The notes under the pieces: generated by a model | What the model was told of the DNA's origin: nothing | Seen by the model: only the letters and a program-made list of their open reading frames with translations | Database searches by the model: none | Assembly (NCBI GenBank): GCA_032718475.1 | Contig: JAUCBJ010005450.1 | Coordinates: 1-54,599 of the forward strand | Direction: 5' to 3' | DNA from: Nemertoderma westbladi | Lineage: Eukaryota; Animalia; Xenacoelomorpha | DNA: 54,599 nucleotides | Shown: in pieces, positions 16,075-54,599 of the stretch | Layout of the letters: each line of letters begins with the position of its first letter | Numbering within the stretch: position 1 is the first letter of the stretch | Translations under genes and position numbers: made by a program

Positions 16075-16404
16075 CCAACTGGTGGGGCCTTACATAGGCT
16101 CAGTTTAAGTGAGAGGGTCGTCAAACAGGATGTTAATCGTTCCGATCAGTGATAGCCTACCTCATATATTTCGTTTTTGGTATATTTTGTACAAATATAC
16201 CCCCTAAGTGTCAATTCGCCCTAAATTTGTAATTTTTGTCCATTGCTTTTATTAATTATTCTAGAATTTCCTCCCACCAGTTGCCATAATTTGTTAATTT
16301 TCTAATTTTGTCATTATTTACCAATACCCTACGTCTGTACTACGGGCTGTGCGGTACAGTAGTCTATTTCGTGCGGCCTACACGGTCTATCCTACTGTGC
16401 CCAC

Positions 16405-16885: not shown

Positions 16886-17136
16886 ATTAGGTAGGCCTAC
16901 GTTGGTACATTATTGTACCCGTCCGACGTACATAATTGTAACTACCTACACTGTATATTATGTACGTTGGTACATCTGTACCCATCAGACATACATAATA
17001 TCTACTATCTACCTACAGCGTACCTTGGTACTAACTACTTATTTTATTATTTTGCTTATTTTTATTTTTATGTGTGGGAAGGGCGTCTCGCCCTCATTCC
17101 CACCCCCCTCAGTCCAATATATTGGACGACTCAACT

Positions 17137-18144: not shown

Positions 18145-18450
18145 AAGCAACAACTCCTTCATCAAGACAGCGAGCTCAACGCGCTGTCGCCACAATTGGA
18201 CGATGACGGGATCCTGGTCATGAACTCCAGGGTGGTAAACAACAACAGCCCAGTCATTCCACCGAAACCGATAATAATCCCCAATAAGTCACCAATAGTC
18301 AACCAGATCATATGGGATTCCCATAAATCTATACTACATGGGGGTACTAAGCAGACCCTGACCGAAATCCGGAAAACATTATGGGTAATCCAACTCAGAA
18401 AGATGGTGAAGGCGGCAGTGGGGCAGTGCCAGACGTGCCGACGGACAGAC
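18143..18450 (+). pseudogene. Inverted segment encoding the integrase HHCC zinc-binding domain of E2
   Basis: LSPQLDDDGIL...DSHKSILHGGTKQTLTEIRKTLW...CQTCRR reads on +, opposite to the flanking pol sequence. Confidence 0.88.
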
Positions 18451-18475
18451 GGGGACGAAGTGAACCGAGTTAGCA

Positions 18476-18987
18476 TGCTGACTCGGTTCACTTCGACCCC
18501 GTACCCCTTCATTTGCTCGTATCGTATCACGGCTTTAGCCGCCCCTTCCAGATCGATGGTGGGTCTCGTTTTGGTATCCTTACCAACTCCCCTGAGGAAA
18601 TCTCCGTAGGCCCTCAGATATGCTACCAGTTTCTTAGTCTTATACCAGCCGGAGCTGTAACTGAGCAACATATCTGTTGGGCTGTCGCACGACTCTCTCG
18701 GTTTTAGTTGCGGTGGCGCCTCCTTAATCTCCCTCGCCAATTGGCTGTTTATTTCCTCACCCTCCGATTCCTCTCCCTCCTCCTCTACTGTTACTTCCTC
18801 TGTACCTGGGTCTACCTTCCTCATTGGTGGCCAGCTCGACCTATCGTTAAGGAAGTGCGGCCCATGCTGCCACAACTCATGCTTTCTCGAGAAAGCGTGG
18901 CGTACAATGCCCCTCGATAGCAGATCTGCTGGATTGTCGTCGGTTGGGCAGTAGTGCCACTTTTCCAGATCGGTCGTTGCCCTTGTC
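18476..18987 (-). pseudogene. BEL/Pao RNase H C-terminus and linker (continues from 22028-22187)
   Basis: [18 protein letters not shown]...LWQHGPHFL; joins across the LINE to the upstream RNase H piece. Confidence 0.85.
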
Positions 18988-21691
18988 GCACAGACACGGT
19001 GGTGGTGTCTGTACTTACATTCGATGTGATTTAGCTTTTAATCGTAGGGAAGATTTAGAGACTTGTGACGAAGTTTTACTGGTGGAACTTTTACTTCCTA
19101 AAACTAAACCTATTTTAATCGGTACTTTATATCGGCCCCCTAAACAATCAGATTTTTTGCAAAATTTTGAAAATACAATTTTATGTAATCTTAGGTCAGA
19201 CTGTGAAATATATTTCTTAGGTGATTTTAATATCTGTTACCATCACAAAGCATCCCCCATCTGTAAACAGTACCAAAGTATTTTAAATTTGTTTGGTTTA
19301 AAACAAATTATTCGAGATTCTACCAGAATTACCAGTAAAACTTCTACTTTACTAGATCACATCCTTTGTAATAATACCGATATTATTTCTCAATCTGGGG
19401 TTTTACCTATAGGTCTAAGCGATCATTTTATAGTTTTTTGCACAAGAAAGACACAAAAATCTTTTTTCGGGGATCATAAAACAGTAACAGTTAGGTCTAT
19501 GAAAAATTACAGCAAGGAACGCTTTTTAAGTTTGTTAGTTAATTCTGACTGGGAACCCTGTTTTAAGGCCGCTGACATTAACCTTGCGTACACTGTTTTT
19601 AAAGATATATTTTTAAAGGCACTTAATACTGTAGCACCAATTAAAGAAATTAGTCTTAAACAACGCACTGAGCCCTGGATGACCTCGGGTATTCTTAGTA
19701 ATATCAGAGAAAGAGATAACTATTTGTATAAATTTAGGAAATACCGTGTTTTAGCTGATTATAATAATTACTGCAAATATAGAAACCTTGTCCAACGGGA
19801 AATAAAAAAAGCTAAATCTGAATATTTGTACAACAAAATAAGTGAGAATAAAGATAATCCAAAAAGTCTATGGTCTACCCTAAAATCTTTAGGTTATAAA
19901 AACCTTAAATCTAAATCGAATATTGTTCTGCAAGATAACGGTGAGCTGATTCATGATCATACTCTAGTTAGTAATTTATTTAATAATTTTTTTACTAGTG
20001 TTGCCTCTAATTTAGTTAAGAAATTACCGTTATCAAGTAATAAATATAGTATAGGGTCCGAAACTCTAAATAATTTTTATTTAGAAAAGTTACAAAATTC
20101 AGAAAAGTTATTTTTAAAACCCGTTTCTGAGGATTTCGTTTTCCAAAATCTACTTAGCCTATCAGCCTCAAAAAGTACCGGTCTAGATCTAATACCTGCC
20201 CGTTTTCTTAAGGATGGTGCTGTAGTACTTAAAGTGCCTATTACTTTTATTATTAATTACTCTATCGTAGATAATGTAGTACCAGACGAACTGAAATTAG
20301 CTAAGGTTGTTCCTCTGTATAAAAAGAATAGTAAAGTAGAACCCTGTAATTACAGACCTGTTAGTATCTTAAGTATTGTATCTAAAATTCTAGAACGTTC
20401 TGTTTTTCTACAGCTGGAGGCACATCTTAGTAGGCTAAATCTGATCTATGAACTTCAGTCCGGTTTTCGTAAATCATATTCTACAGACACCTGCCTTATT
20501 AACTTAACTGATACAATTAGATGTAATAACGCAAAGGGTTTATATACTGGTATGGTAATGTTGGACCTACAAAAGGCTTTCGATACTGTAGATCACGAAA
20601 TTCTGCTTGGTAAGTTAGGCCTGATGGGTGTAGGTTCTATAGACTGGTTCAAGTCCTACCTGTCAGACAGAGGTCAAACTGTAGTCATTAGCAAATCGCT
20701 GTCTACTGTACAAGAGATTACCTGTGGTGTACCGCAAGGTAGTATATTAGGTCCTCTGCTTTTTGTATGCTATGTAAATGATATGATAAGTAGTATAGAT
20801 CCCGATTTTAAACTCATTTTATATGCCGACGACAGTGCTCTTATTTTCTCTCATAAAGATCCTATCCATATTTCCCAAAAGTTAAGTGCAGTTCTAGAAT
20901 CTTGTAATGAGTGGTTGGTTGATAATAAGCTATCCATTCACTACGGTAAAACTGAAAGTATTTTGTTTGGTTCCAAAAGAAAGTTAAAGAAGGTAACTAA
21001 GTTTGAAGTCACTAGTAATGGACATAAGATTGAAAATAAAAAGGAAGTTAAATATTTAGGCGCCACATTGGATAACTGCTTATCAGGAGAAAGCACAGTG
21101 AAAAATATTTTCTCGAAAGTTAACAGTAGGCTTAGGTTTCTATACAGAAATAAAAATAGTTTAAACACCGACTCCCGCAAGTTACTTTGCTCTTCTTTAA
21201 TACAGTGTCACATGGACTATGCGTGCTCTTCTTGGTATGAAGGCTTAACCAAACAGCTTAAATGTAAATTACAAGTAGCTCAGAATAAAGTAGTACGATT
21301 TATGAAAGACTACAAACCTAGGCACCACCTAACTCCAGATGACTTTTCTGAATCTGGACTACTTAACTTAGATAGTAGAGTTAAGCAGCTACGCCTTAAC
21401 CATGTGCATAAAGTGTATAATGGTAAATGTCCCAATTACCTAAAACAAAAATTCAACAGAGTACGCGATACACACTCTTACAGTACCAGAGCTAGTGCTT
21501 CAAACTTCTACCTCCCGAATTGTAAATCCTTTGAATCTGATACTTTCTTTTTTAACGGCATAAAAAATTGGAACGCTCTGCCTAATGAAATTAAAAACCT
21601 AAATAATCAACATTCTTTTAAATCTGCAGTTAAATCTCATCTCCGTGTGCAATGTAAAAATAGGTACAATAGTCCTACAGTAAGTTATTAG
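18944..21691 (+). CDS. LINE ORF2: truncated AP endonuclease plus reverse transcriptase (first ~15 codons are flanking host sequence)
   Basis: HGGGV, YRPP, GDFN, LDHI, SDH; [49 protein letters not shown]. Confidence 0.93.
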
Positions 21692-31535: not shown

Positions 31536-32008
31536 TACCAGTTGACTGTTTTTATGAAATAAAAAAGGTCGGTTCCTTATCGGGCCCTTATTCCTTATCG
31601 GGCCCTTATAGGCCCTTCACTAGTAAATACAGTATTCTGTAATCTTATATCTTGTAAACGTGCTTGGTATGGAAATTATTTGTTTCATATTATATTTTTA
31701 TTAATGGTAGCAATGTTTATTTTCTTATTATGTGGGACGAGCCACAAAGTCAGCTAGCCTCACGCCTTACACTTTAGACACTTGTTTAGTTTACTTATTG
31801 CTGACTGACATAGTTCATTTTTGTAATAGTCTTGGCTCGGATTCCTCCCCTGGGCTCCTTCCAACCAGCCAGCTTGCTGGCTTTCTACAGTAGTATTAAT
31901 TGCTACGAATGTTTTTTATTTTAGGCTAACTGATTTTAACTGATTAGGCTAACTAATTAGAATAAATTAGTGTTCTTTATTTTATTTACCTAATACAATA
32001 AGAGCCCG

Positions 32009-32584
32009 AGTTGGCGAGGGAATCCCGACCGATGTGTTTGCTTTTGGATAGTACGCGTTGCCGCGTCTGCTGGCTGCTGAAAGGCTTGTGGTATCTGAAA
32101 GGCCAGAGGCCGAAAGAATAAGTTTTAGTGGCAGTTGTTCGTAATGTCAGAATACAATAATAGCACAGTCAGAATACAATAATAGCACGGTTACTGACGA
32201 CGGTTTAAACCGTTTTGCTTCTGCAGCTCTGCACAAACCAAGTAAACAACAGGTAATAAAGGCAATGGTTATATTACTAACACATATGGAATATTGCTAC
32301 TTAGTTCGTGGCCTGGCCAATGATGCATCCCAATCGGATGGTGTTCTGCCCCACCATTGGCAATCTATCCTTCCTTCCCTTGGCACACCCTGTTCCGCTA
32401 GCTCCCTTCATCCCCCTGAGATGGCTTGTAGCCTCTCATCTCTCCTTGTGGCTGCCAATGTATATTGCCTCCGTTAGTTGTTAGGTGACATTATATTGGT
32501 AATGTCACCTAGCGAACTATAATTGGTAAAAAGCCACTTTCCCCATTTTCCACTAGGTAGTGCAGCGAATAGGATCCGCTCACA
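32009..32584 (-). repeat. 3' LTR of E3 (outer ~16 bp missing)
   Basis: Aligns to 39604-40201; ends ggatccgctcaca next to the PPT. Confidence 0.88.
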
Positions 32585-33386: not shown

Positions 33387-34160
33387 TTAAATTATGTACG
33401 TTGGTACGTTCATACCATACATTAGTACATGTGTACTATGCATGTATTGTATATTTGTACCCATCAGACATACGTAATTGTAACTAGCTACACCTATTAT
33501 GTACATTGGTACGTTCGTACCATATGTTAGTCATATGTTTTTTATATTTTATTTTTGTGGGAAGGGTGTATTGCCCTCATTCCCACCCCCCTCAGTCCAA
33601 TTTATTGGATGACTCATCAACCTAAGGGCGATTCTTCCAGCAGGCAACTCTCCCACTGCCCCCCTGTAGGTCCTCTTATTCTTCGCCCCACTCTTCTTGT
33701 CAATTCCAACTCTCTTGGATCTGACCTTCCCTTCTCCCCAAGATCGGATCTTTCTGTCATCCCACAGAACTCATCATCTTTTCCAGGTGTCAAAATGCCA
33801 CCCTTCATATCATCCTCACAGGTATATGCCACCTCTGCTGGCCTCCCCCTCAATATGTGCGCTGTCGTTAAAGCCTTCGATGTCCCTTGGTCATCCTTCG
33901 GTATGCATAATGGATACCATTTAATGCCCCCTCGCACTCCGCCAGCCCCGTGTTCAACACGCCTCCTCTAATTTCCCCATTCCCTTAGTCACCCTTCATC
34001 ATCGGCTCCTTTCCCTTTGGATTAACCTTCTTACATCCTCTCCCTTTCCACCTTGTCTTCTTATTCGATACCAGGGGTATCTGTATACTCCTTATTTGGA
34101 TCGGCGTCTCTTCCATATATCTCTCCAGATATCTCGCCGTCCAATCTTCCCCATCCTTGT

Positions 34161-36600
34161 ACCGTATCCACCATCCAACATATGTGCTGGCAACAAACTG
34201 AACAAAGCGCTCAAGTCGCTGCTCAAGATGGATACTACCTTGTGTCTTCTGGTGAAGTTCACCTCTGAATATATATAATTTAAAAGCATACATCAGGCTG
34301 GCCATCCACCTGGCGTTGGAAGCAGCACCAGGCTGATAAAATGTATGTGGGTATTCGCCACCAAGTAGAAAAATGGCAAGTACAAGAAGTTCTCGATAAT
34401 CGGCATGGCAGTTAATAGTCCCCAACAGTTCCTTAAGGTCATGTCTTTCCTGGACATATTTATCAGTATCAGGTACACATTGACCCTTTGTTAGATCTAG
34501 GGCCATCCATTGTTTGCGTAGTCTACCATGGAATCGGGGACTAGGGCCACTGGTTGCACCAAATACCAGGCTGTGTACTGCACTGACTATAACCTCCCCA
34601 ATGTGGTGGCGGCAGGCAAGCCATATCACTCGCCGATCTATCCACTTCTCCAGATTCCACTTATAGATTCCACAGATACCACTTCTTGAGATGTATGGGT
34701 GGACCTTACCTCGATAAACTTCAGGAAGCGGTGTACGACATTAATAGAACACACAATGATGCTCTAGGATCTTCTCCATTGGAAATGGTATCGGGTAGAT
34801 CTAAACAACCACCATTAACTGATTGGCCCTCTGAGGATAAACAAGTTACAGCAAAACCCCATATAGGAGATCAGGTCTTAGTGCGAACTAGAGGAATTTG
34901 CAATAAACTGAGTCCAAGATTTTCAAATCCAGGAGTTGTTGCAGGGAGGCCATTTGAGCAAGTAGTACTTTTAGCTGACGGTAGATCCATAAATATTCGA
35001 GATTGTAAAATTATTCATGTTTCTGGTGAAGGGGGTATGTATGTGGAGTAAATTAGTTGTTGTGAATTACTTTAGCCTTATTTGTGTATGGAGGGAGATT
35101 TGATTTGAGATTATTTTCTTTAGTTGAATATAATGCGGAATGTAGGAATGTGAGAAAGACAGACTTTTAGATACCCTACTTCAGTACCGTACCTGTTATC
35201 TTAACACAGGTGCCATCCAGCCAACCAGAATTAGAATTAGTCGTGTCAAAGACAAGAAATGCTACCAAGTGTAACGTTGTACTATTGAAGTAATGTCCCG
35301 AGAGGAACTAGTACTTGCAGCTCCAATTCCCAACAGTTTTGTGTACTTTGTGCTGCCATCAGCATTTGGGACACCACTGCCAGTTATGGCTACAACACAT
35401 CGATCAACATCTGTAAGGGAGCATTTCAGATGAGCCATTTGTTCCCATCCCAGTGGACTGCAATTTTGTGTTCTCCAGGATCAAAGGAGTCCTTAATATA
35501 TTTGGCCCTTGCTGCTCGAGATGCTGACTGGCCACTTAGTGTGCTAGTTTTGCTGAGTGTGACCTGATCTAGATTACCTTCACTGGCCTTGATAATTGCA
35601 GCAGTGTAGGCTGTTGCAGCTCCAGATGAAATTCCAATGCGATCAGCAGTCTGAGCTACTGTCTGGTCATTCATTATGTTCCGTGGCATCATCAGTTGCA
35701 CTGAAGCACACCTCTTGCTTGATGTTGCTGAAGATGGTGGAAGATAGTCAACATCAGAATCAGTACTATCATCCTCTGAAGCAGACCTCGACATATCAAG
35801 TTCAACAATTTTGTCCAAGTCATTCTGCTTTCTAAGCATTTCTTACCATTCCCTGTCAAGTTTACTGTCCAGTTTGTCTTTTTGTTTCATAGCTTCCTCT
35901 TCATATTTCAAATCCCTTGATTTCAGAAATGGTAGATCTTCTCCCTGTCTAAGTTTTCGAATCCATTCACATTCTTCAGGCAGCAGCATACCTATAGCAA
36001 CTTGCCATTGTATTATAATCTATACCTTATAATATATAACTCAAAATTCGATTATTGGATAATAGGCTACCGGTACAGTACTGTAGTAACTGAATATCAC
36101 TCACTAAACCTACTGTATGTAGTAGGCTACATCAGTAGAATATAGTACAAAGCCCTGTGTTTTAGGGTAGTCCTACCGGTACCGGTAGGTAGGACAGTGG
36201 AATGCAGAACATCCAAAATGCAAGAGTGGATCAGAAGTGCAGTAACGCAGTATACTTGTCATGTAGTGTCATTTGTATAGGCCTACAGGTATTACATTAC
36301 TACAACTGTACAGTACAGTACCTTAAAGCCGCCATTCAAATTAAAGATAAACATATGACAAACGTGATGTTATCAGTATTTTTCAAATCTAATGCATTCC
36401 ATGAAAACTGTCCCTTAACCGCACTCAAGCTCATCGGGCGATAAATTTTGCGACAAGTCAAAAATTCATTTAGCTCCAGTAACTTGCATGTTCAACATTA
36501 TGATTCCATACTTGGCACAACTTAATATTATAGGAAATAGAACAAATTAAGCTGACAAGTCTTCTCTGTATCTCAATTTGAATATTTTCGGATCGGTCTA
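34161..36600 (-). mobile_element. hAT-like (probably hATm-type) DNA transposon relic with a decayed transposase, 3' end deleted
   Basis: VHWDG (35426-35839), VFDTTNSNSG (about 35230-35255), WLACRHHIGE and PGAASNARWMA (33985-34629); candidate terminus TAGACCGATCC at 36600; no second TIR found. Confidence 0.7.
34670..35208 (+). mobile_element. Gypsy-like 3' fragment (integrase tail, PPT, 167-bp LTR at 35042-35208) inserted in the transposase
   Basis: AVYDINRTHNDALGSSPLEMVSGR...IGDQVLVR...KLSPRF; purine tract GGTGAAGGGGG then TGT...ACA. Left boundary approximate. Confidence 0.72.
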
Positions 36601-36637: not shown

Positions 36638-38241
36638 CTACTGGTCGCAATCGATGGTCTTATGCGTCCCATCCCATATATGCATGCTTTCTATGTAGCT
36701 GGCACCTGTAGTTTGGATTATAACGCTCTCTGTATAGTGTCTTGCATATTTCGTCCAGGTCTGAGTCGGATGGTTTGTTGTTTTGGTTGCACATACCCGT
36801 GTCAGGGGTGTTGTTTCTGCCATAGCCACCACAATTGTTCTGTGGACTAGAAGTCCCCTCAATAGTTGCATATGGCAACGATTGCCTCACTCTCGGAAGT
36901 TCATCTGCAGCACTGTGTTCCAGTTTAGGTCGGCTATTCCACTTTCGGTACCTTGCCCAGACTTTCCTCGCTGTACACTGGATCCGTTATCAACTCGGCT
37001 TCATAGTTAAGGAATTTTGACATCTCTTCCAACCCTGGCTCCACACTCTTCTTTTCTCGAGTGGAGAAAGCGATCTTCCTCCATTTATTCCTCAACCATA
37101 TCGGTAGTGCCTGCGCTATGCTTGTGATGTTACTTAAAGCATTAAGTTCGTATGGTGCTTCTAGTGTCTTTAAAACTATCAATGCCTTTTCTACTTTGTT
37201 GGCGAAGGCTTTCATACTAACAGGGTTATCCGTGAGTCTGCCTGATGTTATTCCCCTTAAGGTTTGTCGGATAATCTTCGCCGGATGGCCAAATTCCCTA
37301 TCCAGGGCTCTCCATGCTGTTGTAAATCCTTCTTCAATTCCCTGATATTGCTTCACAATGTTGTAGGCAGGCCTAGCAGGTTCCTGCCTACTCACCAGTA
37401 TGTAAGCCACGACCTCCAATCTTTAATCCCGGCATTCGCACTACCCTATCACCTACACTATCTCTCCCAGCATGGCCTATAGGCCTAGTATGTCCAGTAA
37501 GACCTATAGTATGTCCTGCAGTCTGAATGTGCTCCCCCAAACAGAAGTTTAATCTTCTCGAATATTACGAGAACTTCTCCCCGCGAGTACCATATCGTCG
37601 ATCGGCAGCTACATTCTGACAGGAAGTTTCCCTTCGATCCCCTCTTATCTCATCATCCTTGTCTCGGTACACTCTGTACCCCTCTCCCGGTGTATGATAT
37701 ATTTCACAAGGTTGTGATTCTCTGGGGGCGATCTCCCGAAGTATGACCCCACCGGCCCTCCCTCTCTACTTAAACTATTGACAGTTCACTGTCCATCCTA
37801 TCTCAACATCTCCGGTTGCCCGTAGCAGCATCTCCTCCCCCCTCCTTGCATCCTCTGGTTTCGGCATTATATCCACGTTCATGAGGTATTGTATCGACCT
37901 CCCGGATGAACTCTACTGTTCTCCTTCCATCTTCCGATTGGGCTCAAAGTCCTCTCGTTTGGCCGCTTACGGCACCAACGTTCCTCCCTCTACCCGGTTG
38001 TATGGCCTCGCGGATATTTGTTGCCCTTCTACTATCCTCCGTCGTTGGGAGCCCTGGTTCACTTAACTCACCGTGCGCATTTCCCGCCGACATTTGTGGG
38101 GCATTTATTGTATTGTCTGTGGGGCCGAACCAGCTTCGCTCTCGGATAAACCCATTTTTGCCAGTTCTAATCGGTGCTTTTGCTTTGCCTGATCTGCATT
38201 AACCCCCTTAACCGGGTGTGCATATCATACCTCATTCTTTT

Positions 38242-38281
<40 letters not shown>

Positions 38282-39530
38282 CTCTCTAACACTCAGATCG
38301 GCTAACTCTGCCTCTCTCGCCTCTCGCTCTCTGCGCTCATTCACTTCTCTCTCAATCCTCTCAGCTTTCCTCGCTTCTAGCTCTTCGTGCTCGTTCACTT
38401 CTCTCTCAACCCTCTCTGCCTCCCTCGTGCCCCGCTCTTTGCACTGATTCATTTCTCTCTCAACCCTCTCTGCCTCCCTCGCATCATGGTCTTTGCACTC
38501 GTTTGTCTCTTTCTCTTCACATTCTCTATGCTCACTCTCTTCCCTTTCCTCCCTTTTTCTGCCCTCACTTATTTTCCTCTCCTCGCCCTCTCTATAGTTT
38601 CTCACCACTTTCTCGACCCTCTCTTTACACTCTCTCACTAGCTGCCTTTCCCTTTCTAATAACGCAGTCCCCTCATCCAGCTGTCTCTCTGATTCCTTTT
38701 GGTCTAATGCGACCAAGTCTAGCTGACACACCAGATCTATCTCTAACACCCTTCTTGCTTTCGCAGAGGATGTAGTGGACTTTTCGGTTGCGACAGACTC
38801 CTGTCGCCTGTTTGTTCTACTAATTTTGCCGTGCTTACTAGCATTTCTACTAACCGATGACACCGAATCTTCGGGGTTAACCTCGGGTTTGTGTCGTGCG
38901 GATCCACCCATCCCACTAACTTAATTCCCTGTGCATCCACTAGATAAGGCCCTATCTAGGTTGCATTATCTCGGATCACCACAATTCGAACAGGTCTGTG
39001 GCAACCCCCCTTACCCTCTCACTCGCTAGTTCTCCCTACCCAAATCGGACTAGGTAGTGGAAATGTTTATTGCACTCCCCGAGTCTCCGGTACAACTTGG
39101 GCTGGTCTACCTTTCCTCCAGTCTTAGCATCCTTGAATATCTTCCTCATCGCGTTGTACCCTCATTGTAGGCGATCGCTCGTCTGAACTTGACCTTCTCT
39201 CCTCGTCCGGCGTCGTACCGACGGCCCCACCATTGCCATTCCAGTGGGCCGTTCGCCGCCTTCGGCCACTGGTTGGCTGGTGATTCCGGTACTTCGTTCG
39301 CCGCTCTGATCTCATGCCGACTTGCGTCTCCCTTCTCCTTGTACTCGACCGCTCTCCTCCTCAACGACCAAACCGTCTTTCCTCGGCGAATCTGGTGTGG
39401 CGGGCCGGTACTGCCTCGTCGTTGCCTCCCGAATTGTTTGGTCTCTATCGCTCGGGGTGCACGGTGGGCTTCCTTCTCCCTCTGGACCTTGGGGTGGTTG
39501 TTCGCTCATCATCCCATTGAGTGTCCTCAC
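36638..39530 (-). pseudogene. Decayed BEL/Pao gag of E3
   Basis: DUF1759-like AWRALDREFGHPAKII...LPIWLRNKW...FLNYEAELITDPVYS; E/R-rich coiled coil at 38240-38911 including a (CT)n microsatellite; many stops and frameshifts. Confidence 0.75.
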
Positions 39531-39587
39531 AGTTTCCTTGAGTTTTCCTTGAAGTCATGGTTTAGACTTTCTAAGCGTGGTTTAAAC

Positions 39588-40201
39588 TGTGACAGGATCC
39601 CCAAGTTGGCGAGGGAATCCTGACCGATGTGTTTGTTTCTTTTGAATAATATGCATCGCTGCGTCCGCTGGCTGCTGAAAGGCTTGTGGTATCTGAAAGG
39701 CCAGAGGCCGAAAGAATAACTGAGTTTTAGTGGCAGTTGTTCGTAATGTCAGAATACAATAATAGCACAGCTAGAATACAATAATAGCATGGTTACTGAC
39801 GACGGTTTAAACCGTCTTGCTTCCACAGCTCTACACAAACCAACTGAACAACAGGTAATAAAGGCAACAGTTATATTACTAACACATATGGAATATTGCT
39901 ACTTGGTACGTGGCCTGGCCAATGGATGCATCCCAATCGGATGGTGTTCTGCCCCACCATTGGCTAATATATCCTTCCTTACCTTGGCAATCCCTGTTCT
40001 CTGATACCCACGTGCTAGCTCCCTTCGTCCCCCTGAGATGGCTTGTAGCCTCTCATCTCTCCTTGTGGCTGCCAATGTATATTGCCTCCGTTGGTTATTA
40101 GGTGACACTATATTGGTAATGTCACCTAGCCAACTATAATTGGTAAAAAGCCACTTTCCCCATTTTCCGCTAGGTAGTGCAGCGAATTGGATCCGCTCAC
40201 A
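39588..40201 (-). repeat. 5' LTR of E3
   Basis: Terminal inverted repeats TGTGA..GGATCC at both ends; direct repeat of 32009-32584. Confidence 0.9.
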
Positions 40202-41324
40202 TTAGTAGAGTAAACTGGTCTTTGGGGCCGTTTCCCAGGTTGTGGACCACAATGTGGATAGGGAAAACATTTCACACATAGCACAAATTGTTATTTGTCT
40301 GCTTAGGCTACTGTGTATTAGATTAGAAGAGAGCTGGGGTGGGAGCTGGGGGGGGGGGGGGTCTCCCCCAAATAGACTACTGTAGGCCCACTGTTTAATA
40401 GAGCATGCTGTTCACAAACGCCTTATTACATATTCACTTTAGAATAGGCGCTACCTTTATGTTTAATAATTGAAGTATTATTTATTATTATATCCTAGCA
40501 AAGATAAGAAGTTGATGAAACAGAGATATGTCGCTTTTAGGTTGCAATGTTATTCATCTCATTATTGTTTCAAATTGTTTGCACAAAAATACTTGTCCTC
40601 GCTTTAATATGTAAATTTATATGGTGGCCCTCAACCGCCGCACCACCGCGAGAATAATTAATATAGGTCCATCTGATGCAACACAACTCCCCGAACACGA
40701 TTTTGTATGCAATAACACGTCCGGGTGGGTTGGCTAAACATCTGGTCCGGTCGAGAGGTTTTTCTTCAAATATTTTTTTCTCGCAGTAGCAGTTCAGGGC
40801 CACATTGTAAATCAAAATAGGCGAAGATAAAAATAAAATAATCTGGCAATAACAACAATTAAATTGCCTTATGACTCTAGAGTCCCTATTGGCAGATATG
40901 ACAAACACACTTGTTAACTACTGTACAGTACATGTACTGTTCTTATCCTGGGACTTTGGACCAATAGTTGAAAGGTAAATTCCATGTAAAAGATTGCAGC
41001 CTGGACCGGAATACAGACATGTAATAAGTTTTATTGCAAATGTAATAAATAATAATTGGATATAATTATTGTATTGTATTATTATAACTTTTATTGTTAA
41101 TATTTAAATATTTTTGTATTTCATTGATGTTGTTTTTAACCCCTTAAACATGATCAACGTCATTAATAACGAGAACAGGGGTTATAAGAAACTATTAATG
41201 AACACGTTGACAGTGATTATGGCTCTATTGGCAGCCATCGTTACTGCGCACCCTGAAATAATACAGAATATAATGACATCAGATATTTTTAAAGCGGCAT
41301 TTCGAAGTGGTGATTCTGGTAATA

Positions 41325-43551
41325 CAGTCCCGCTCTCAAAAAGCATTCCTTTGATCAAACATTGATCAAACTTTGATCAAACATTGATCAAAGTTTGATC
41401 AAATATTGAAATGTATCAGGCTTATAAATCCTGCCATTGAGTTCTACCAAAGGCGCTGCACTTCAAAGTCTAGATTCCCACTGAGCTGTGTGTCAATCAA
41501 GCAGCCCTAACTCTCTCTCTCTCTCTCTCTGCTCTCTGTGTGTGTAATGCTCCATGTGCTCTGTAGGATGTCTGCAGAGCACATAGGACACCACTTCCAT
41601 ATCATACCATAGGTTTGTAAGCTATAGCCGTTATTTAAACCAGTTAAAGCCTAGGTTATAATAATTTACAGCGATTATCAGAAAATAACAGCCGCAATTG
41701 AATCTCCACTTGGCGGTGTGGTGGTAATGAAAGTAATGGCAGGTATGGGCTGTGAGGAGTTTAATTCGGAGTTACGCAATGGGTTGGGTGGATGGCTACA
41801 ATACATTAGAATGGTGGGGGGGGGGGGGGGCACTAGCGTACCGAGGGGGAGGCCATATGAAAGCATACTGAAGTCTTTCCATTTGAAATGAGAAAAAAAA
41901 TAATATATAGGCCTATATATATTAAAGATCCACATTCCAAATTTTCTGAAACAAAAGCATTTTTCTAAAGGGGGGGGGGGGGGGGGGGTAATATAAGAAT
42001 ATCCCTTGGTATTATTATATCAGTTGACATTGTGGCCTTCTGGCTGGCCACAAGTGGGAAATACGTTGCTTTCTTGTAAGGAGAAATAATTGATTCGAGT
42101 CACAACAAATTATGTCATAGGGAGTACAGGAGTCAGCGGTCTCCGTGCTATTTGCTGTATATTATTAGCTTGGGGTGCCGACAGCGACAGACCACTAACA
42201 AAGTAAAGGCATATCATGTGTAATGGCTCTTAGCTTATGCCGCCCCAGCATGTAAAACCATTTATCTGCTGTGGAATGGAATTCCCCGAAATTTCGAAAT
42301 TTACTATAAAGTCTTCCCAAGAGATTAGACAGCCAACTAACCCACACACAGGAGGCCGCCAACCAAAGAGATTGGCCTCCTGGCACTGAGCTGGCCTAGT
42401 CGCAAAGGAACTATGCAGGTAGTAATGTGTACTAAACAATACTAATGGCTACAATACATTATAATGGGGGGGGGGGGAGGGGGGGGGTGCAGGTCCGCAG
42501 CTTGTACAATGATATAGTCATAGTCCACAACAAGAGAGGGGATGGGATCACTGGGGTTATATTGATGCCTTGTCCTTGACTTACAACGACCTGTGAGCAA
42601 AAGTGTGGTTTGTCGGCCGGATGGTTAAAACCCTCCATTAATTAAAAATGAATGAGCATAATTTAATAAGTATTACTAACCCAATTTGATTTTTAATATT
42701 TAAAAAATTATAATTACAATACGTTAATCTGAATTAAAAAATACGTAACTAATGATGTACATAACATAGTTTACTTTAAAACAAATTAGATTTTCAATAA
42801 AATTACCTTATCAGAGTATTAAAATTAAATTACGTACATTTTTAGAAGGTATTTTAGGGGGTGCGCTGGCGCTAGCGCTTGGATTTATTTATTTCTTTAT
42901 TTACATTTATTAGTATAATTAGAGACAGGGGCAGGAAGGAAGCTTGTCGAATTTACACAATTACTGTATAAGCAAATGCAATGCAACGGCAGCCATCGCG
43001 CTGCTACGTCAATGGAGGTCTTTGGCCTTGATTCTGATTTAAGGAACATTGAAACTAATTTCTAATATAACAATAATTTAAAAATATTCCAAAGGATGTT
43101 TTTCTGAACTAGTTGTTGGTGTAATAATAGGCCCTGCCCTACAAGAACAAGACTCAGTCTGGGACACTACCACAACACTGCCATGTAAATCCAATCGCGG
43201 TCCATCCACAAAGTCAAGCAAGCTCCATCCACCGCCCTGTCAATCACATCGCGGCTTGGCCATTAACAAAAGCCAGTTCTCGGCGGGAATCTGAGTTCAA
43301 AGGCATGCCGCAGAAGAGCGATGTAAACTGTTACCTTGAAATCATTTCAATGTCATTTCAATATGAGACAGAAAGTCTGGAATTTCGGTCCATCGATTTC
43401 AAGGTCATTTCAATATGCCATCAATGTCATTTCAATGTCAATGCTACTTTCAATGATATTCTATGGACACATTTTGATCAAACTTTGATCAATGTTTGAT
43501 CAAAGTTTGATCAATGTTTGATCAAAGGAATGCTTTTTGAGAGCGGGACTG
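41325..43551. mobile_element. Non-autonomous TIR DNA transposon (TA TSD, CAGT termini; Tc1/mariner-like or CMC-like)
   Basis: About 78-bp essentially perfect TIR CAGTCCCGCTCTCAAAAAGCATTCC followed by tandem TTGATCAA palindromes; TA on both sides; no transposase recognised. Confidence 0.9.
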
Positions 43552-44332
43552 TACGAATACCGACAACATTGACAACATAGTCAACGGAACAGCTGCAATA
43601 GATAAAGTGTTTGGAGGTGAGGGTCTTTCCCAGACTATTAACCACGAACTGGCAAACACCGCACAAGCTAAAATAGACAATTTACTTACTACTGAGTAAG
43701 TATAAAAACGTAATAATTTATGCAATATAGTAAATCATTAATTTTTTTATAAAATGGAACAGTTCATTCAGCCACACTATTCGTTTACACATTAAAACAT
43801 AATAAAGGTGCAAGGGGGGCATAAGGGGTGGCAGAACAATTATGATGCATTATTGTAATTTGTAAGCGTTCGTAACGCTGTATATCCCATTAAAATATCG
43901 TTACAACTTACATATATAATATACTATATAGATAATTAATAAGAGACAGCGGAGTAACAGTATAGCACAATCAGCCCATCACCATGTATAGTATACCACT
44001 ATAATACCAGTAAGCATTTAAGCTGTAGGCCTATTTACAGTAGTATATACAATACTCCAGTTCCGTCAGATAGTTGTGTCCGTTGTGTATGCGGTAGGCC
44101 ATGCCCAACAGGTCATAACCATTATGGACCTATAATTCTACCACCTTTATTATAGGAAGGGATCTTGGGGTCTTAGCCTCGAATGATAAGTTTTCATTTA
44201 CCGAAAATAACTTATCTTTTATTGGCGCAATTGTAGGACTAATCCCATCACATGCGTACTTTTTAACTGGGTAGTGTACAAATTTAGGAATCGCATAATA
44301 TTCATTGAAATGAATATCACATATCTCTCCAA

Positions 44333-46030: not shown

Positions 46031-46618
46031 TGTAAGCGGATTCAATTCCGCCTCATTACCCTCATACAGTACAATGGGATACGGCATTTTCAGCAATATG
46101 TTGGAGATACGAGATTAGCAATAATTAATCTCGTATCACAACCAACATCGGGGACAGTACAAACCCCAAAGCCACACACAAAGGGAGGTTTGAGGTCAAA
46201 CCACCTCGGAGGGGACACAGCTAACAGGGGCTAGCAACAGAGGGGAAACACTCCCAGAGAATGGAAGGGTGTGAAGTAGGTTGTTAGCCAATAGGGGCGA
46301 GGGAGAGCATCCACTAGGTAGCAGGCCAAGGTAATGTAGGAGTGAAGTAATCATATATTATCTCCTACATACCGGTTTATCATTCAGTTACCCAGTTGTC
46401 AGTTTCAGTGCAGACCGGCATTATTGTCTTACCGTCATCACAGTGCTGTTATATGCTGTCATCACATATTACTATTACCGGTTTTATCATTACTGTGCTA
46501 TCATTACACATATTATTATATATCGGAACGAAAGGAACATCAAACTCAAACATTTTCTCCACCAGCCTGCGGCGACGCGTACAAACATAACCCAGTCGGG
46601 ATCCCTGATCCCGTCACA
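46031..46618 (+). repeat. 5' LTR of a further E2/E3-family element (E5), followed by a short leader that abuts the RTE
   Basis: Starts TGTAAGCGGATTCAATT...CATTACCC like the E2 LTR and shares GGCATTTT...GAGATTA.CAATAAT; ends GATCCCGTCACA. Confidence 0.78.
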
Positions 46619-46698
46619 GTAAGACAATATTGAGAACTACTAGAACTGTGACTGCTAGAAGAGATAAAGTAAAGATGAGCGATAGAGGACCCCGATCA

Positions 46699-48880
46699 TC
46701 AGAGGGAGTGAGGAAGTAGATCTGGTATGACGTCGTCTTTACTTCGCCAGAAGTACCCACTGAATCTTAATCTGCGTTGTTGTCTCCAGCTGATGTTTAG
46801 GGCTGCCCTTAGTAGTCTTGTGTAGCAACCATCAATTCGTTGTTCAAGTGATTTAGTCAGTGTCCTGGTCTCACCCCCGTATAAAAATACACTTTCCACT
46901 GTGGCTCGAAAGAACTTAGTCTTCAGGTGCCTGGAGAGATCTGATTTCCAGATGGTATCCATTTTTGATAGAGCTACCCAAGCCTTTGCTTTCCTAACTT
47001 CTATGTCCTTTTTGCTACTCTCTATCCATGATCCAAGGTACTGGAAGTCATCGACCTTCCTTAGTTGATTATTAGCAATGGTTGTCAAGTTTCCATCAAC
47101 ATTAAAGGTCATGAATTCGGTCTTGGTAGCATTTATATGTAATCCAACCTCCTTAGCAGCCCTCTCCACTTTATTTAGTAGAAGCTGTGCATCTGCTAGC
47201 GTATTAGAGAGCAGGGCGATGTCATCCGCAAAGTCGGTGTCTGTGACTGTAGTTGCCGGATATCTACTGCTTCTGCGTTCTTGAAGTGTGAATCCCAGAT
47301 CTTCACCCTTTGTGGCCGTCCTCATTGCGTAATCCAGCACAATTACAAATAGTAATGGTGTTAATGTGTCACCTTGCAGTACGCCAGCCAGGATTGAGAA
47401 AAACTCAGTTTCACCATCTGGTGAGAGTACCTGCGCTTCTGTGTCACAATATAACAATCCAATGCCAGCAACAATTACTTCTGGTATTCCATAAGCTCTT
47501 AGGATTTCAAGCATTTTACCTCTATGGATGGAGTCGAATGCCTTCTTGAAGTCCACAAAAGTCATGACTGCGGGGAGATTCTTTGACTTAATTCCTTCAA
47601 TCAGTCTCCGTAGTGCAAGTATCTGAGCTATTGTTGATCTACTTGGTCGAAATCCGTTTTGGCTCATACGCAGTAGTTTCTCTATGTGAGGCCTAATCCT
47701 ATATAGAATCATTTTATTGTATATTTTGGCAGCTACCACAAGCAGACAGATCCCACGATAGTTTGTTGGTATGCCGAGGTCTCCTTTCTTGGGGAGAGGC
47801 TTTAGTTGACCTTTAGTCCAAATTGGTGGTGGCTTTTCCCCTTTTAACATCCGGTTGCAAACATTCAATAATGGTCTATTTAGCACTCAGGTTTTCCATA
47901 CCTCCGCTGGGATTTCATCTAATCCACTCGCTTTATTATTGGACATGCTTTTAATGCTTGTTTGGAGTTCGGCAGGTGTGAAGTCCCCTGTTTCTATAGG
48001 TAGTGTCTTGTCATATATTTTCCTTGTAGGGCTGACCTCGATGTTTGGTGGCTGCCCAAGCAAGTTGCTGAAGTGATTTTTCCACTTCCCAACACGTTCT
48101 TCAGGACTATCGGCTTTGAGGCGCCCCTTTGCACAACTTTTCCGACCAGATACCTCATTTACAGTTTGCCAGGTAAGTCTTGATTGTTGCTGTATGTGAG
48201 CAGTTGTAATTGCTTCAGTTTTATCCTGTATGTACTTTTCCTGGCTGATGTTGTAGGCCAATTTAAGATTGTCCTTAGCTTTCTCAACCTTGTTAATGTT
48301 TTCGGTTGTTGGTTGTTCGGTTTTAACTTTGTAGGCTATCTTAAGATCTTCTCTCTTACAAGTAACCTCAGAGTTTTGCCATGGCACATACTGTTTTCGT
48401 TTAGGTTTCTGGGGGATATGCCTCTTAGCTGATTCCTTGTGGGCTGTTATTATATTCTGGTATATTGAATCGGTGGATTGGTCTTCATCCATTGACTGAA
48501 GTGCTTCAAAGCGGTTTCGAACTTCTACTGTATAAGCATCCTTTACAGCATTGTCAGTTCTGAGTTTCTCCCAGTCATAGTTGATTTGCTTGCTTGTCCT
48601 GGGTTTGCTGGCTCTCAAACTGAGTCTGATCTCTGCAGTCACAATTCTGTGGTCCGAACCAATTAAGTTGAACGAGCTGTATGCCTCGCAGTTGATCATG
48701 CTATTTCGCCACTTTTTGTTTATAAGGATGTAATCCAGTTGTGCTTTGGTTCCATTAGGGTATTGAACGGTCCATAGCTTCCCCTTACTCTTTTCGAATG
48801 TGTTGTTTGTTGGTATCAATTCACATTCTTCCATTAGGTCTAAAAGTAAGTACCCATTTCTGTTAGAACTGGTGTTGATG
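46699..48880 (-). mobile_element. RTE-clade LINE fragment (AP endonuclease tail plus RT, one in-frame stop at 47887, both ends truncated)
   Basis: QLDYIL, GSDH; NYRGICLL, QNGFR, VDFKKAFDSI, GVLQGDTLTPLLF, DFADD, FQYLGS, SVFLYG.ET.TL. Confidence 0.9.
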
Positions 48881-49015
48881 AATTATTTCACTATAAGATA
48901 GCATTTGTAGTTTAACTTTAACGTAAAAACTTTTGAAAATCCGACGTATTTTGATTAAGTTACAGTAATGTAATATGCCTATTCATATTTGTACACATAA
49001 AACCCTTAGGTACTC

Positions 49016-49086: not shown

Positions 49087-52000
49087 GAAATTTGTATTTT
49101 GGGGCCATTTATTTTCGTGTGGTGCTAATTGGTAGGCCAATGAGAAGCGTACAGCGTAGCGAATAATGAGCCAGGCCAATCATAGGGCATAAATTATCTT
49201 ATTGCTCAAATGTGAGGCAGTGGAAAATTCTGTTAGGATTCCATGTCCCAGATTTAGTGTAAGGGCCGGACTGCGTTGAACGATGAGCTGGGCCAATCAT
49301 AGAGCACGAAGCACTTCATTGCTCAATGGTGAAGCTGTGGAAAATTCTGTTTAGTTTCCATGTGCAATTTCTAGTATAAAAAGGCCGGTTTGCCTTCGGT
49401 TATCACCTTATATTATGTCACTTCTTACCACTTTGTAAAACTCTTACTTTTGTAAAATTAGTTTATTCGGTTTCTTGTTGAAACTTCGTTTGATAAATCC
49501 TTTTGTAAAACTGTAAATATACTGCAATTTCCTGACATGTTTTCTTTTGGTCCGACTTCGGGACAGCCGAACACCAGGGAGATGGCAGCCTAGATCGTTA
49601 GGCCGTAAGCAACGCAGGGAAGGGATGTCCACAACACGCTAGCGCCCACATTTGGATTGACCGCGCACCCCCTTTGCCCTTCGAAATACTCCACTTGCTA
49701 TGCAGCGCCCGCTTTGTGAGAAGGTAAGACTTTGTTCGACGCCCTTGCCCGCCGTAAGACCTATAGATCAGGGTAAGCGTGACACCGCACTGGACGCCGC
49801 AAATTTAGGATCAAATAATTATATCCAGACACCCCCCCCCCCTTCTTGTCAGTCCTACGAACCCCTGGGTTAACCTGTACTTCCTACAGGTGCGAACTAT
49901 TGCCATTCGTCAGTACGCGAGTACACATTAGGTACGGACAGCATACGTTCCATAATTTAGTGATTCATAGCACTGACTGTTTGGTACCGGTTCGCTTTGT
50001 AGAACGTACATTAGTACCCCCCCCCCCCCCCCCCCTTGTCTGGAGTTAGCTATTTGATCAGGCAAGGAGCATTTCTGCTACCGGCACACTGCTTGGCCTA
50101 GGGAGGTTTATTAATATCCTACCGCGCCTTGCCACGTACTGATAGGTATTGCTGCTAACTACCGCAGCAACAAAGTTCTAGAATTAAATTAGTATACCAG
50201 ATCAGCTAACGTACGGTAGCGATTAACCCCTATTCTTATCTTACAACCAGAATCTGGTATTAGTGCCGATCACGGGTGTAGTTACTAACACTGTGGTTGC
50301 CCATTGGGTTGTGGATAGGAAGGAGAGAGCTTTGACGTCATTCGTGAGTATAAAGTTCTACAAACGCGACTAGTTTATTTTAGTAGCTAGCGCACGGTAT
50401 CATTTTAGTCAGAAAATCACTAAAACCTAGTAAAGGAATTACACGAAATTGTTTTATTTGTAACACACCCACACACACACGCCCTAAAACATATTGCCCT
50501 TAAAGTTCTACTAGCTATAGCGTACTATACATTACTTTAGGTGGAAATTATCCGTATTTGTAAAATTAGGATCTGATTTAGTTGCGGCAAAATAAGGAGT
50601 ATTTCACTTTCGTTATTAAACTGTTGTTTGTCTGGACAACGGTATTGTTACATTTAGGCCTGACCTTTTAGACTGATTTCGTACAGGGGGATCAGTTATT
50701 GTTACATTTAGGCACGACCCCTTTTCGACTGATTTAGGACTGTCAGTGTTGTTACGCTAGGTCTGTTAACCCACTAGCTCGTATATAAACCATATAAATC
50801 ACACCGCGGCAAGTTACTGTATTTAGGACTGTCAGTGATAGTTAGGATTCGCTGCGCGGGGATTGTTTTCCCGTGAGTTTGGTCTGTTACTGTAACTGTA
50901 CATCTGCCTCACCGGTTAGAGGACAGGTATCCTTCTGTCTAGTACGTAGGCATTCGACCCGCTCACGTACATAGAATAGATACAAGGCTCTGTTCCTCGC
51001 CAGTAGTCGTTTGTGTACTGTATCTGTTTGTTTAGATATCCTGGACTGGGATTTGTTGTCAGATACTGTACAAGCCCGTATACATTACTAGAGTCTCATA
51101 GTAAGATACATCGTTACTAGGATCTGGTAAGCGGTATACTACTGGACCCTTACAGTAGGAAGTATTTTATATAAATTAGTATATAGTATTTCTACCATAG
51201 TGTATAGTATTCCTACCTTACAGTAGGAAGTATATTATACAAATTCTGAAATTAGTGTATAGTACTTCTATCGTAGCGTATAGTATAGTTTAGGATTGTT
51301 AGCTATTGAAAGTAGGAGATATTTAAAATTTAAGGTTAGTAAATTTAGTAATTTAGAACGTCCCCTGCTTCAGTAGGCTTTTAGGGTAGCTAGTACTTTC
51401 GTATTTAATCTTTGACTAGCTAACAGTTAGTTTGTAGCACTTTGTTTTACGCCGTGTGTGTGCGGTGTTACTTTTCGGTACTTGAAAAGGTACATAGGGT
51501 TTAAAGACCAATTTGTATCGGTACCTAGGAAGATTTTTCGTAAGCGTAGAAGTAAAACTCTCACCTTCGACCTTTTCAGGACTCAAGGACTCATTTCTGG
51601 ACCGCTTCGAGGATTAGACCGCTTTTCGCAAAGTTTGGGAGACAATAAATTCGTCCGCGCCGCCGAAAAACGGAAAGACCCACGTCCGGTTTGTATTTGG
51701 GAATTTGTACGACTGGAAGATCAAAGGAACGTAAGTTTTACGACTCGCGTCGTTCAAACTTAAGAAAGCACAGTAGTACTCAAAATTTGTGGGTTTCACT
51801 GTCTATTAGTAGTGTTGTTGGTACATATTTTCCCGTTAGACGTTGCTGTTTGGCCTATTGTTTTACTTGTTGATCTACATTTTGTTAACGTATACCGTTA
51901 TCTCACTTATTCGTACAAATTTAGCCGGTAGGCTAGATTACTACTTATTTTATTATATACCTTGTTAGTTTTATTTGTACCGGTTAGGGTATATATGATA

Positions 52001-52160
52001 TATATATATATCAAGGTAAGTTTGACATTTGTACATTTCGACATTTTGACATTTCGACATTCTGACTTGTTGATTTATTTGTACCGGTTAGGTAAGTTTG
52101 ACACTTCAACATTCAGACACTTGACATTTTATTACCCGTACTTGACGTATATAATAAGAC

Positions 52161-54599
52161 ATGAGTGACACACCCCATTCGACGAGATACCCACCTACCG
52201 ACTATGACTCGTGCGACCCGGACAGATCGACAGTAGACGAACCGAGAAGGAGAACCCGAGATTCCACCGATGTCACACCGCTTGCATCGCCGGTACCCCG
52301 AACGGAAATACCGGAAGCCGCAACGCGTGGCGACGGCAGAATCGAAGATTTCCTTACCGTCCCGCAGACTAGATCGCGGGAACCGGACATGGTAAGTTCG
52401 ACTGGAAGCCAGGAGAACGTTATTAGAAGTATAGGAGGACACATGGCCCAGATTACTCGGAACCTCGGAGAAGGTTTTCGCGTTTTACGCGAGTTAACCG
52501 CCCCGATGTCGAGATACGAGTTCTACACCTTACAGGTAAGAATAGAAAGTAGGGTACATGCCTCCGTAGATAAACTTAAAGGTTTGCACGAACTTGCAGA
52601 GTTGCGTGGCGACAACTTTACTCAGGTAAAGATAGTAGATAAATTGGTAAGTGCGAGAGAAAGCCTTATCCAGTTTAAGTCGGTGATAAGATTGGCTCAA
52701 CAGGAGCAGTTCGACCAACTGCTAGGTGAGTCAGTTTCGGACGCGTTGTTACAACCCGAAGAGGAAGAAGAACTCTACTGCCTGGACGGAAGGTTGGAAA
52801 CGCTGACCAATTTTCTTCGTAGATGCGGCGTACCGATCGACGAACCGGAACTCGAACCGCGAGGGACGACGGAAGTTCTCACTACGGAAGGCTCGCGAGC
52901 CTACCAACATCCACCACTGGATAGATCGTTCGTTAGCGTACGGAGCAACGTTGGCGACGTTAGTAGAACAGCGTCTGGAATTACTCGACAACAACAGGAG
53001 GTTGCACGCCGACAACAAGTCGCCGAGGAAGAAGCGCAACTACAGATGGCACAGATCACCATCGAAGGAGAAAAACAGCGCAGAGAGGACGTAGCGAAAC
53101 TTGCGAAACTTCAAGCGCAGGCTGAGTTCGAAGCATCAGAGATGCGGAGACTGGAGGAGGACTTAGCGCGAGAAGCGGCCGCGGCGGCAGCAGCCGACGA
53201 GTTAGCACGACAGGCGGCAGCTGACGAGTTAGCACGGAAGAAAGCAGCATCCGACGCTCGTGCCAAGTTGGAGGCGCGGCAAATAAACGCTCGATTAGCT
53301 ATACAGGAAGCGGAATTAGCGGCACAACAACAGGACGCAGATCGACGCGAAAGGGAGATGCAACTACAGTTCGAATTGAATCGTAGATCGCGCGAGACAG
53401 CGAACGCGCAAGCGGACCTCGAACTCGACGCGAGAGATAGATCTATGAGATCGCGAACTGGACACGACTTGTCTGCCCTGGATCGTATGGAAGCTCGATA
53501 TCGCGGAATACAGAAGCGGATCGAGGAAGGAAGCGTGGGAGCGATAGATCGAGGAGAGGAGTTCGTCGAGGATTACTGTAAACGTTTTCCCCAAGTTATT
53601 CCTATGCTCAAACCCACGACTCCGATAAAACCGGTCTTTGTTACGAAACCTAAGGAAATAACGCCTGTGCGTTCGACGCAAGGCAACAGGTTTGTTGTGA
53701 CGGAATTACCGCAACCTAGGGCGACTTCATCGCCAATTTTAGCAGGTAACATTACTAGTCCACCTACAGTAAGTCGTAGTTTACTTGTAGAGAGAGACGA
53801 ACCTGCGTTTATGACAGTAAAACAGGTGAGTAAACCATTACAAGTTAAACCTGTGACGTGCTGCGCGAACCCAGTCATTTATAAACCTACAGTAGAGCTT
53901 AACTCAGATGTTTTTACTAGACCTCTCACCCAATGTTTAACGAGACCTACGACTTCGTGGAAGGCTTGCGAGCCTACCGAACAACGGAGAGCCGTAGATC
54001 CCAGATCACAACGAACTCGACCAAGGATAATACGCCGGACGCGAACCCGCCAACCACCTTATCCGGACGACAGCGATTCATCCAGTGACTCGGAGTCGAC
54101 GGAACGGGAAATATTCCGTACGGGAGCGGCAGCGGCAGCGGATTACAAACGGGAGGAGAGATCGACGAATCCCTACATCGACAATCCACCTCGAGAAACA
54201 CCCCAACAGAAACCCACGTTGCAACCAGCGGAAGCGATCAGCACCAACAGACTCGCCGAAATAATGCGACCTGTAGCGGACCGACTAGCTCAGATAGAAG
54301 AGCGACTCGAAGCGCAACCGTCGGATCGATCACGGACCAGCGTGGAATTGGAACAACCTAGACAACATCGACCACCGAGGAGAGAACAGGAGACTAGACG
54401 GACTCCGACACATCGAGAGGAAGATCCCGTTAATAATTCCTACCGACGAACAACGCGCGGAAGGGAGCGACTGGACGACGCCATCGAACAGGGACGCGGA
54501 CAGTTGGATTTAGTTAGCGAGATCGCGAAATTCGCGGCTAGACACGGATTACCGGCACAGCAACCGCCGAAGTTCTCTGGCAACGCGAAACACTGGCGT
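52161..54599 (+). pseudogene. Decayed BEL/Pao gag of E4
   Basis: ATG MSDTPHS..., A/E/R-rich coiled coil with stops; ends LPAQQPPKFSGNAKHWR, the start of a DUF1759-like domain. Confidence 0.7.

Follow-up and report, generated by a model that had tools for sequence, protein, structure and literature searches.

To our knowledge, self-priming of reverse transcription has been proven only for Tf1, and is predicted for its chromovirus kin and for one plant copia lineage. In Tf1, RNase H cuts between bases 11 and 12, leaving a primer of 11 nt (accessible part of PMC7175516). The available sections of PMC6317226 predict self-priming for the TAR lineage of plant Ty1/copia elements (Houba, Osr-1) and the Tcn1 clade, from at least 10 nt of complementarity to the LTR that begin 0-5 nt past its end. 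The ICTV describes the Belpaoviridae as tRNA-primed, with an 18-nt site for tRNA-Arg or tRNA-Gly and a replication that is poorly understood (PMC8742986). Our literature search, which lay outside subscription journals, Repbase entries and supplements, found no published report of self-priming in BEL/Pao elements, and the terms PBS, tRNA and self-priming do not occur in PMC554778, PMC3118150 or PMC6238403.

The window analysed here, a 54,599-nt stretch of Nemertoderma westbladi DNA, holds three families of LTR element, E2, E3 and E5, whose leaders match their own LTRs, each family with different letters. Priming by a piece of the element's own RNA is therefore likely, and we conclude that elements of this type probably prime themselves as Tf1 does, likely after a cut behind a conserved AC. 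The copies of E2, E3 and E5 in the window are all broken. The window also bears a SURF4 exon, several LINEs and several LTR elements, and has no tRNA genes; an Rfam search over 39400-40300 gave no match at E values up to 1.

The first-pass annotation read the minus-strand 5' LTR of E3 as running directly into GTTTAAACC (39587-39579) rather than TGG, with the complement of this 9-mer in the LTR at 39813-39805, just before CGTCGTC (39804-39798). Letters and coordinates are both right.

39588 to 40201, minus strand: E3 5' LTR, 614 nt, TGT...TCACA, 90.7% identical to 32005-32584 over 602 columns
32005 to 32584, minus strand: E3 3' LTR, last bases gone, G-rich polypurine tract before it, same site present
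39579 to 39587, minus strand: E3 leader nt 1-9, GTTTAAACC, directly after the LTR at the primer-binding-site position
39805 to 39813, minus strand: E3 candidate self-primer GGTTTAAAC, 9/9 complementary to the leader, with a terminal AC that lies 217 nt from the end of the LTR
39798 to 39804, minus strand: conserved CGTCGTC directly 3' of the candidate primer, the 5' strand of predicted helix P2, poorly paired in E3
39801 to 39816, no strand assigned: perfect 16-nt palindrome over the E3 site, foldable as a local hairpin that competes with leader pairing
36934 to 37422, minus strand: E3 gag remnant, DUF1759 (Pfam E 7.2e-5, under the curated cut-off)
33426 to 33967, minus strand: what is left in E3 of the integrase tail and 3' region, 76% DNA identity to E2 16947-17211, at protein level weakly similar to the integrase tail of E2 (E 8e-5)

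Because the E3 3' LTR is without its last bases (self-comparison matches 39600-40201 to 32005-32584 and stops at 32005), the end of the 5' LTR was placed by homology with the E5 and E2 ends, not by its own LTR partner or a target-site duplication. The first TGG of the leader stands at nt 72, beyond the first ATG at nt 30. Six of 2000 dinucleotide shuffles produced, somewhere in the LTR, a match of at least 9 counted from leader nt 1. The earlier caution that the 9-mer is weak evidence, being largely palindromic, was sound and even understated the case, as the perfect palindrome over 39816-39801 shows. E3 is a decayed, broken copy that still bears the pairing signature. Inside it, at 33985-35842, lie frames on the minus strand that from their motifs we take to be DNA transposase-like, together with plus-strand frames presumably like a Ty3/gypsy integrase tail; a Pfam search of these frames gave no match, and they are likely nested insertions.

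The earlier annotation also held that an element E5, which we take to be the one whose LTR lies at 46031-46618 on the plus strand, repeats the pairing with different bases. This was borne out in full.

46031 to 46618, plus strand: E5 5' LTR, 588 nt, TGT...TCACA, 73% identical to 5' parts of the E2 and E3 LTRs
46422 to 46432, plus strand: E5 candidate self-primer TATTGTCTTAC, followed by CGTCATC, 11/11 complementary to the leader
46619 to 46629, plus strand: E5 leader nt 1-11, GTAAGACAATA, pairing with 46422-46432

The 11/11 pairing has the same register as in E3 and unrelated letters, and was reached in 0 of 2000 shuffles. Neither E5 nor E2 is palindromic at the site; the 16-nt palindrome occurs in E3 only. 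E5 is without coding remains in the window, so that its link to BEL/Pao is one of LTR homology only. A minus-strand LINE at 46699-48882, with one stop between two frames, interrupts E5 about 25 nt past its first ATG (46675).

E2 allowed a forecast. Its 5' half, and hence its own leader, was searched for within the window and is absent, and the forecast concerned other copies of the family.

12143 to 12797, minus strand: E2 3' LTR, 655 nt, polypurine tract before it
12358 to 12367, minus strand: E2 candidate self-primer site, where the window copy differs from most public contigs at 12364 and 12360
17137 to 18142, minus strand: E2 integrase split over two frames, with an rve core (Pfam E 5.5e-7) and a BEL/Pao-type DUF5641 tail (Pfam E 2e-26)

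The site, GCTTTAAC-CGTCGTC, was located where it had been placed, at 12365-12351. Among the 40 of 298 LTR letter differences listed for contigs of runs X1-X3, position 12364 has another letter than the window E2 in 99-100% of the summed depth (23, 31 and 23 contigs), and position 12360 in 83-88% (16, 22 and 19 contigs). From these letters we forecast beforehand that E2 leaders would begin GTCAAAAC or GTTAAAAC, not GTTAAAGC as the first-pass annotation had it. One contig of run X1 (372 nt, depth 32) joins the E2 LTR end ATCACA to GTCAAAACTA, which begins GTC and makes 10/10 pairs with the site as most contigs read. This result comes from one contig of one run, possibly of the source sample itself, with the LTR site on a different contig; the junction is among the 18 of 29 loose ends listed, and those at 12143 have mixed flanks. 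The junction search left out run X5, which has zero cover over 12154-12221. The leader GTTAAAGC was not seen, the sole leader found being the one that matches the majority site letters.

The E2 copy itself is broken. A plus-strand LINE at 18851-21691, with an open 946-aa endonuclease and reverse transcriptase (RT) frame, interrupts it at 18851; the zinc-binding part of the integrase (18052-18609) lies on the opposite strand, an internal inversion; and the 3' region holds, at 16406-16902, six tandem copies of an 82-87-nt unit. The minus-strand stretch 13682-16089 falls in about 3.7 kb between two segments which in E3 are 0.4 kb apart. It encodes a 642-aa frame and a 187-aa frame with zinc-knuckle-like motifs, and is possibly an accessory gene. 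The 642-aa frame matched nothing in Pfam or PDB; the Atlas gives a lead only, at 0.86, to a cluster with 19% PF01612 3'-5' exonuclease.

The three families share a pattern. In each, AC closes the LTR segment and GT opens the leader, in one register and with three different sequences, and in E3 and E5 the AC stands directly before CGTCRTC. The primer segment is contiguous in all three. By self-comparison the single LTRs of E2 (12143-12797, minus strand) and E5 (46031-46618, plus strand) in places match E3 at 69-74%.

BEL/Pao domains occur in all 28 homologues of the E2 integrase. The LTRs, at 614, 588 and 655 nt with TG...CA ends, lie within the 0.2-1.2 kb of BEL/Pao elements, a polypurine tract precedes the 3' LTR in E2 and E3, and the coding remains comprise DUF5641 and rve in E2 and, below cut-off, DUF1759 in E3. 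No RT of E2, E3 or E5 is present in the window, E2 being interrupted at 18851. The 18-nt primer site for tRNA-Arg or tRNA-Gly is absent: E3 and E5 have no TGG before the first ATG, and the E2-family leader starts GTC. The assignment to BEL/Pao is therefore made by protein homology and departs from the ICTV description. The first-pass annotation had proposed self-priming of the Tf1/sushi type. Its first half is supported, with no tRNA site and a leader that pairs with its own LTR in three families, in one register, and in the 15 distinct relatives described below; its second half has to be given up, as the E2 integrase ends in DUF5641 and Pfam finds no match to a chromodomain.

We collected 105 relatives with an integrase alignment, 79 metagenome loci and 26 genome-bin loci; the metagenome loci come from the best 80 of 552 confirmed, in 11 of 64 parts scanned. 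These relatives are likely host DNA. Forty-three loci were examined, the remaining 62 being without a usable LTR and leader or left untried. In 14 loci the flanks fix the LTR ends. Seven of these have TGG within 0-7 nt and pair over only 4-6 nt, whereas five of the seven without TGG pair over 11-14 nt: L085 and L052 by 11 contiguous pairs (reached in 1 and 2 of 300 shuffles), and L068, L089 and L036 by 12, 14 and 11 nt across a GT..AG intron (0, 0 and 1 of 60 shuffles). In the other two, L029 and L104, pairing reaches only 6. Scanning supplied the LTR end of 29 further loci, three of them with TGGTCC. Twelve of the other 26 form 10-11 pairs across an intron, with a null of at most 1 of 40; the remaining 14 fall short, eight of these with an LTR cut by the contig start. 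Three candidates were not counted: L081, with 8 contiguous pairs and an 11-pair spliced form that relies on a weak donor (2 of 40 shuffles); L015, with 10 pairs (5 of 40 shuffles); and L059, with 9 pairs. Viral contigs were scanned twice and yielded no relative.

Merging two pairs of copies leaves 15 distinct pairing elements, most often with a pairing length of 11. Thirteen of them pair only with the LTR intron removed, which points to RNA as the partner. Over 17 sequences, pair positions 1-2 never vary and each of positions 3-11 has 3-4 Watson-Crick pair types, a tally of the variety of letters and not an independent test, because the segments were picked for perfect pairing.

Some relatives are of interest in themselves. 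The LTRs of L081 (1561-3189) and L084 (1-1770) are swollen by internal tandem repeats of about 73-87 nt. L094 (5257-11236) and L101 (5220-11280) are complete BEL/Pao elements with 5-nt target duplications in a record titled Wolbachia chromosome, which is likely explained by Wolbachia DNA inserted into the host or by a mixed assembly; megabase contigs of bacterial bins hold two similar cases, L089 and L102.

Integrase trees were built on about 310 columns. Under a mixture model (23 rows, 18 near-copies and unlabelled rows dropped), TGG and pairing relatives fall on opposite sides of one branch with support 94, and E2, a long branch, groups with the pairing elements. An LG+G4 tree (41 rows, without the short matches L103, L105 and L038) put E2 beside the TGG elements at 52%, and a grouping of E2 with those elements was not rejected by an AU test (p-AU 0.58).

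Two other LTR elements of the window were compared. E6 carries TGG at leader nt 11 and forms no more than 5 pairs, its LTR end being placed by eye at 49537. E1, with an LTR pair at 1-581 and 11224-11804 by self-comparison, offered no clear TGG site at seven candidate LTR ends and a pairing of at most 7, so we left it unclassified. Both have long stretches from LTR to gag, about 2.8 kb in E1 (8265-11804) and 2.6 kb in E6 (49538-52161). The window also contains, at 41323-43553, an element whose 81-nt terminal inverted repeats are perfect, consist of 11-nt units and lie 2069 nt apart; it has no frame over 125 aa between them and is likely a non-autonomous DNA transposon.

The introns of the relatives start 170-320 nt into the LTR. 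When a matrix made from the 13 introns was run over the E3 5', E2 and E5 LTRs, a donor lying 157-215 nt before the AC, and an acceptor 24-39 nt before it, ranked first or second.

39844 to 39982, minus strand: candidate E3 LTR intron ending 31 nt upstream of the candidate primer, with the donor first of 33 GT and the acceptor second of 46 AG

On these ranks the E2, E3 and E5 LTRs may hold a similar intron, ending upstream of the primer. The donor is altered in the E3 3' LTR, and splicing in silico gave no longer pairing for E3 or E5 (best 7 and 6). The same letters can be read instead as a TATA box and initiator: TATAA at 39875 and TCAGT at 39845 would place the E3 RNA start 32 nt upstream of the site.

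Folding predicts how such a primer would be presented. The primer helix, P1, forms in E3 and E5 if the RNA begins at the site (fold z -2.8 and -1.6). It leads straight into P2, formed by CGTCRTC and a partner in U5, which is predicted to be strong in E5 and E2 (pairing probability 0.9-1.0) and decayed in E3 (at most 0.2). The third helix, the hairpin P3, closes the end of U5.

46571 to 46577, plus strand: E5 P2 3' strand, partner of CGTCATC, 6/7 positions paired, probability 0.92-1.0
12200 to 12206, minus strand: E2 P2 3' strand GACGACG, 7/7 with CGTCGTC at 12357-12351, probability 0.99-1.0
39593 to 39622, minus strand: E3 predicted hairpin P3 at the U5 end, 10 pairs, 5 nt before the leader
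46597 to 46613, plus strand: E5 predicted hairpin P3 at the U5 end, 7 pairs
12148 to 12181, minus strand: E2 predicted hairpin P3 at the U5 end, 10 pairs

The letters of P3 differ among the three families, and few unpaired bases remain before the leader. The leader 3' of the primer site formed no stable duplex with the LTR (0.0 in E3, at most 0.33 in E5). The E5 helix holds at every RNA start tried (0.55-1.0). In E3 the leader-LTR duplex is worth only -8.5 kcal/mol, and its pairing probability falls from 1.0 with a start at 39813 to 0.8 from 39816 and 0.0 from 39845 or further upstream, because the local palindromic hairpin then wins.

By analogy with Tf1, the element's RNase H would cut at the step from P1 to P2, between the AC and the C that follows, in LTR RNA presumably of the 5' copy. 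Extension of the freed 3' end into the end of the LTR would yield minus-strand strong-stop DNA, which would then transfer to the 3' repeat. Most relatives would need host splicing beforehand, to unite the two halves of the primer. A wider reading we offer tentatively, as a good possibility short of an expectation: that a broad animal branch of BEL/Pao swapped tRNA priming for self-priming, independently of Tf1/sushi and through a different three-helix junction. In most members the spliceosome would build the 11-nt primer from two exons, so that splicing gates replication; the E2/E3/E5 group would be a variant in which the intron ends upstream and the primer is whole.

Self-priming could instead start from the 3' LTR copy, the 3' region of the RNA, spliced and then cut or trimmed to AC, pairing with the leader, priming and circularising the genome. 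Unless transcription begins far upstream, only the 3' copy of U3 is transcribed, and the position of the relatives' introns likewise favours this version; a strict 5'-end primer would require first exons as short as 3-9 nt. All three window families have U- and GU-rich tracts after CGTCRTC; a canonical poly(A) hexamer was sought in the E2, E3 and E5 LTRs and none was found. In six relatives (L084, L081, L021, L036, L061 and L058), however, a poly(A)-type hexamer noted by eye lies within about 30 nt after the site, which is therefore upstream of the likely poly(A) site, which would put the natural 3' end elsewhere than at AC. If the 3' copy were spliced, progeny LTRs would also be apt to lose the intron, yet it is kept in 13 of the 15 pairing relatives. 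Finally, among the relatives that pair from leader nt 0-1 and group together in the mixture-model tree, the 11-nt segment starts at a pyrimidine-A step, like a transcription start, in 6 of 8 (judged by eye, in related sequences). We consider a primer from the 3' copy unlikely.

We think it quite unlikely that the helix is purely structural, serving packaging, dimerisation, translation control or a switch, with some host RNA or protein as primer. Folding alone does not distinguish a primer from a structural helix, and the E3 16-mer could self-dimerise (predicted at -25.8 kcal/mol), but E5 and E2 lack that palindrome. From its first bases the helix takes the place of the primer site; it always ends in AC and adjoins the LTR end, and was found together with a TGG site in none of the 10 TGG loci.

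Leaders that serve as sites for tRNA halves or fragments, with the LTR match secondary, are very improbable. Half-tRNA priming is known in some Ty1/copia lineages (accessible part of PMC6317226), but here at least 15 different leaders each match their own LTR, where a tRNA fragment would stay constant, as TGGTCC does across the 10 TGG loci. Chance, or an artefact of the palindrome, which the A/T-rich, self-complementary E3 9-mer might suggest (it is reached in 6 of 300 shuffles once offsets of 0-5 are permitted), is hardly credible and was ruled out by the E2 junction forecast in advance, the shuffle tests, the pairing relatives and the non-palindromic E5 and E2 in the same register, the anchored chance being about 4e-6, 2e-7 and 1e-6 for E3, E5 and E2 at equal base frequencies.

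If self-priming is true of it, this BEL/Pao branch would be the third superfamily with the mechanism, and would bear on whether RNA self-priming predates tRNA priming or arose repeatedly. It would also explain why primer-site finders miss such elements, and the pairing signature predicts one exact cut position per family.

The elements described here resemble Belpaoviridae in their LTRs of 0.59-0.66 kb, their polypurine tract and their BEL/Pao Gag and integrase domains, and differ from the ICTV description in missing the 18-nt tRNA site (PMC8742986). With the complementarity of at least 10 nt used in the available sections of PMC6317226, E5 and E2 would be called self-priming and E3, with 9, is one short; the TAR and Tcn1 elements are plant copia or chromovirus elements, and those sections do not describe an intron-split primer. 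The accessible parts of PMC10085805, PMC7175516 and PMC4600332 bring our elements closest to Tf1 and Tf2 of S. pombe, Tj1 and the Tf1/sushi group, which likewise have no tRNA site and a primer position complementary to their own LTR, with 11 nt as the usual length and a U5-end stem adjoining the site. Unlike those Ty3/gypsy chromoviruses, they have a DUF1759 Gag, a DUF5641 integrase tail and no chromodomain. In place of the three-duplex 'pretzel' of Tf1, the upstream flank is paired (P3), the downstream flank is unpaired, and P2 follows the primer inside the LTR. The primer of Tf1 is the first 11 nt of its RNA, whereas here it is a candidate LTR segment, known from sequence and split by an intron in most of the pairing relatives.
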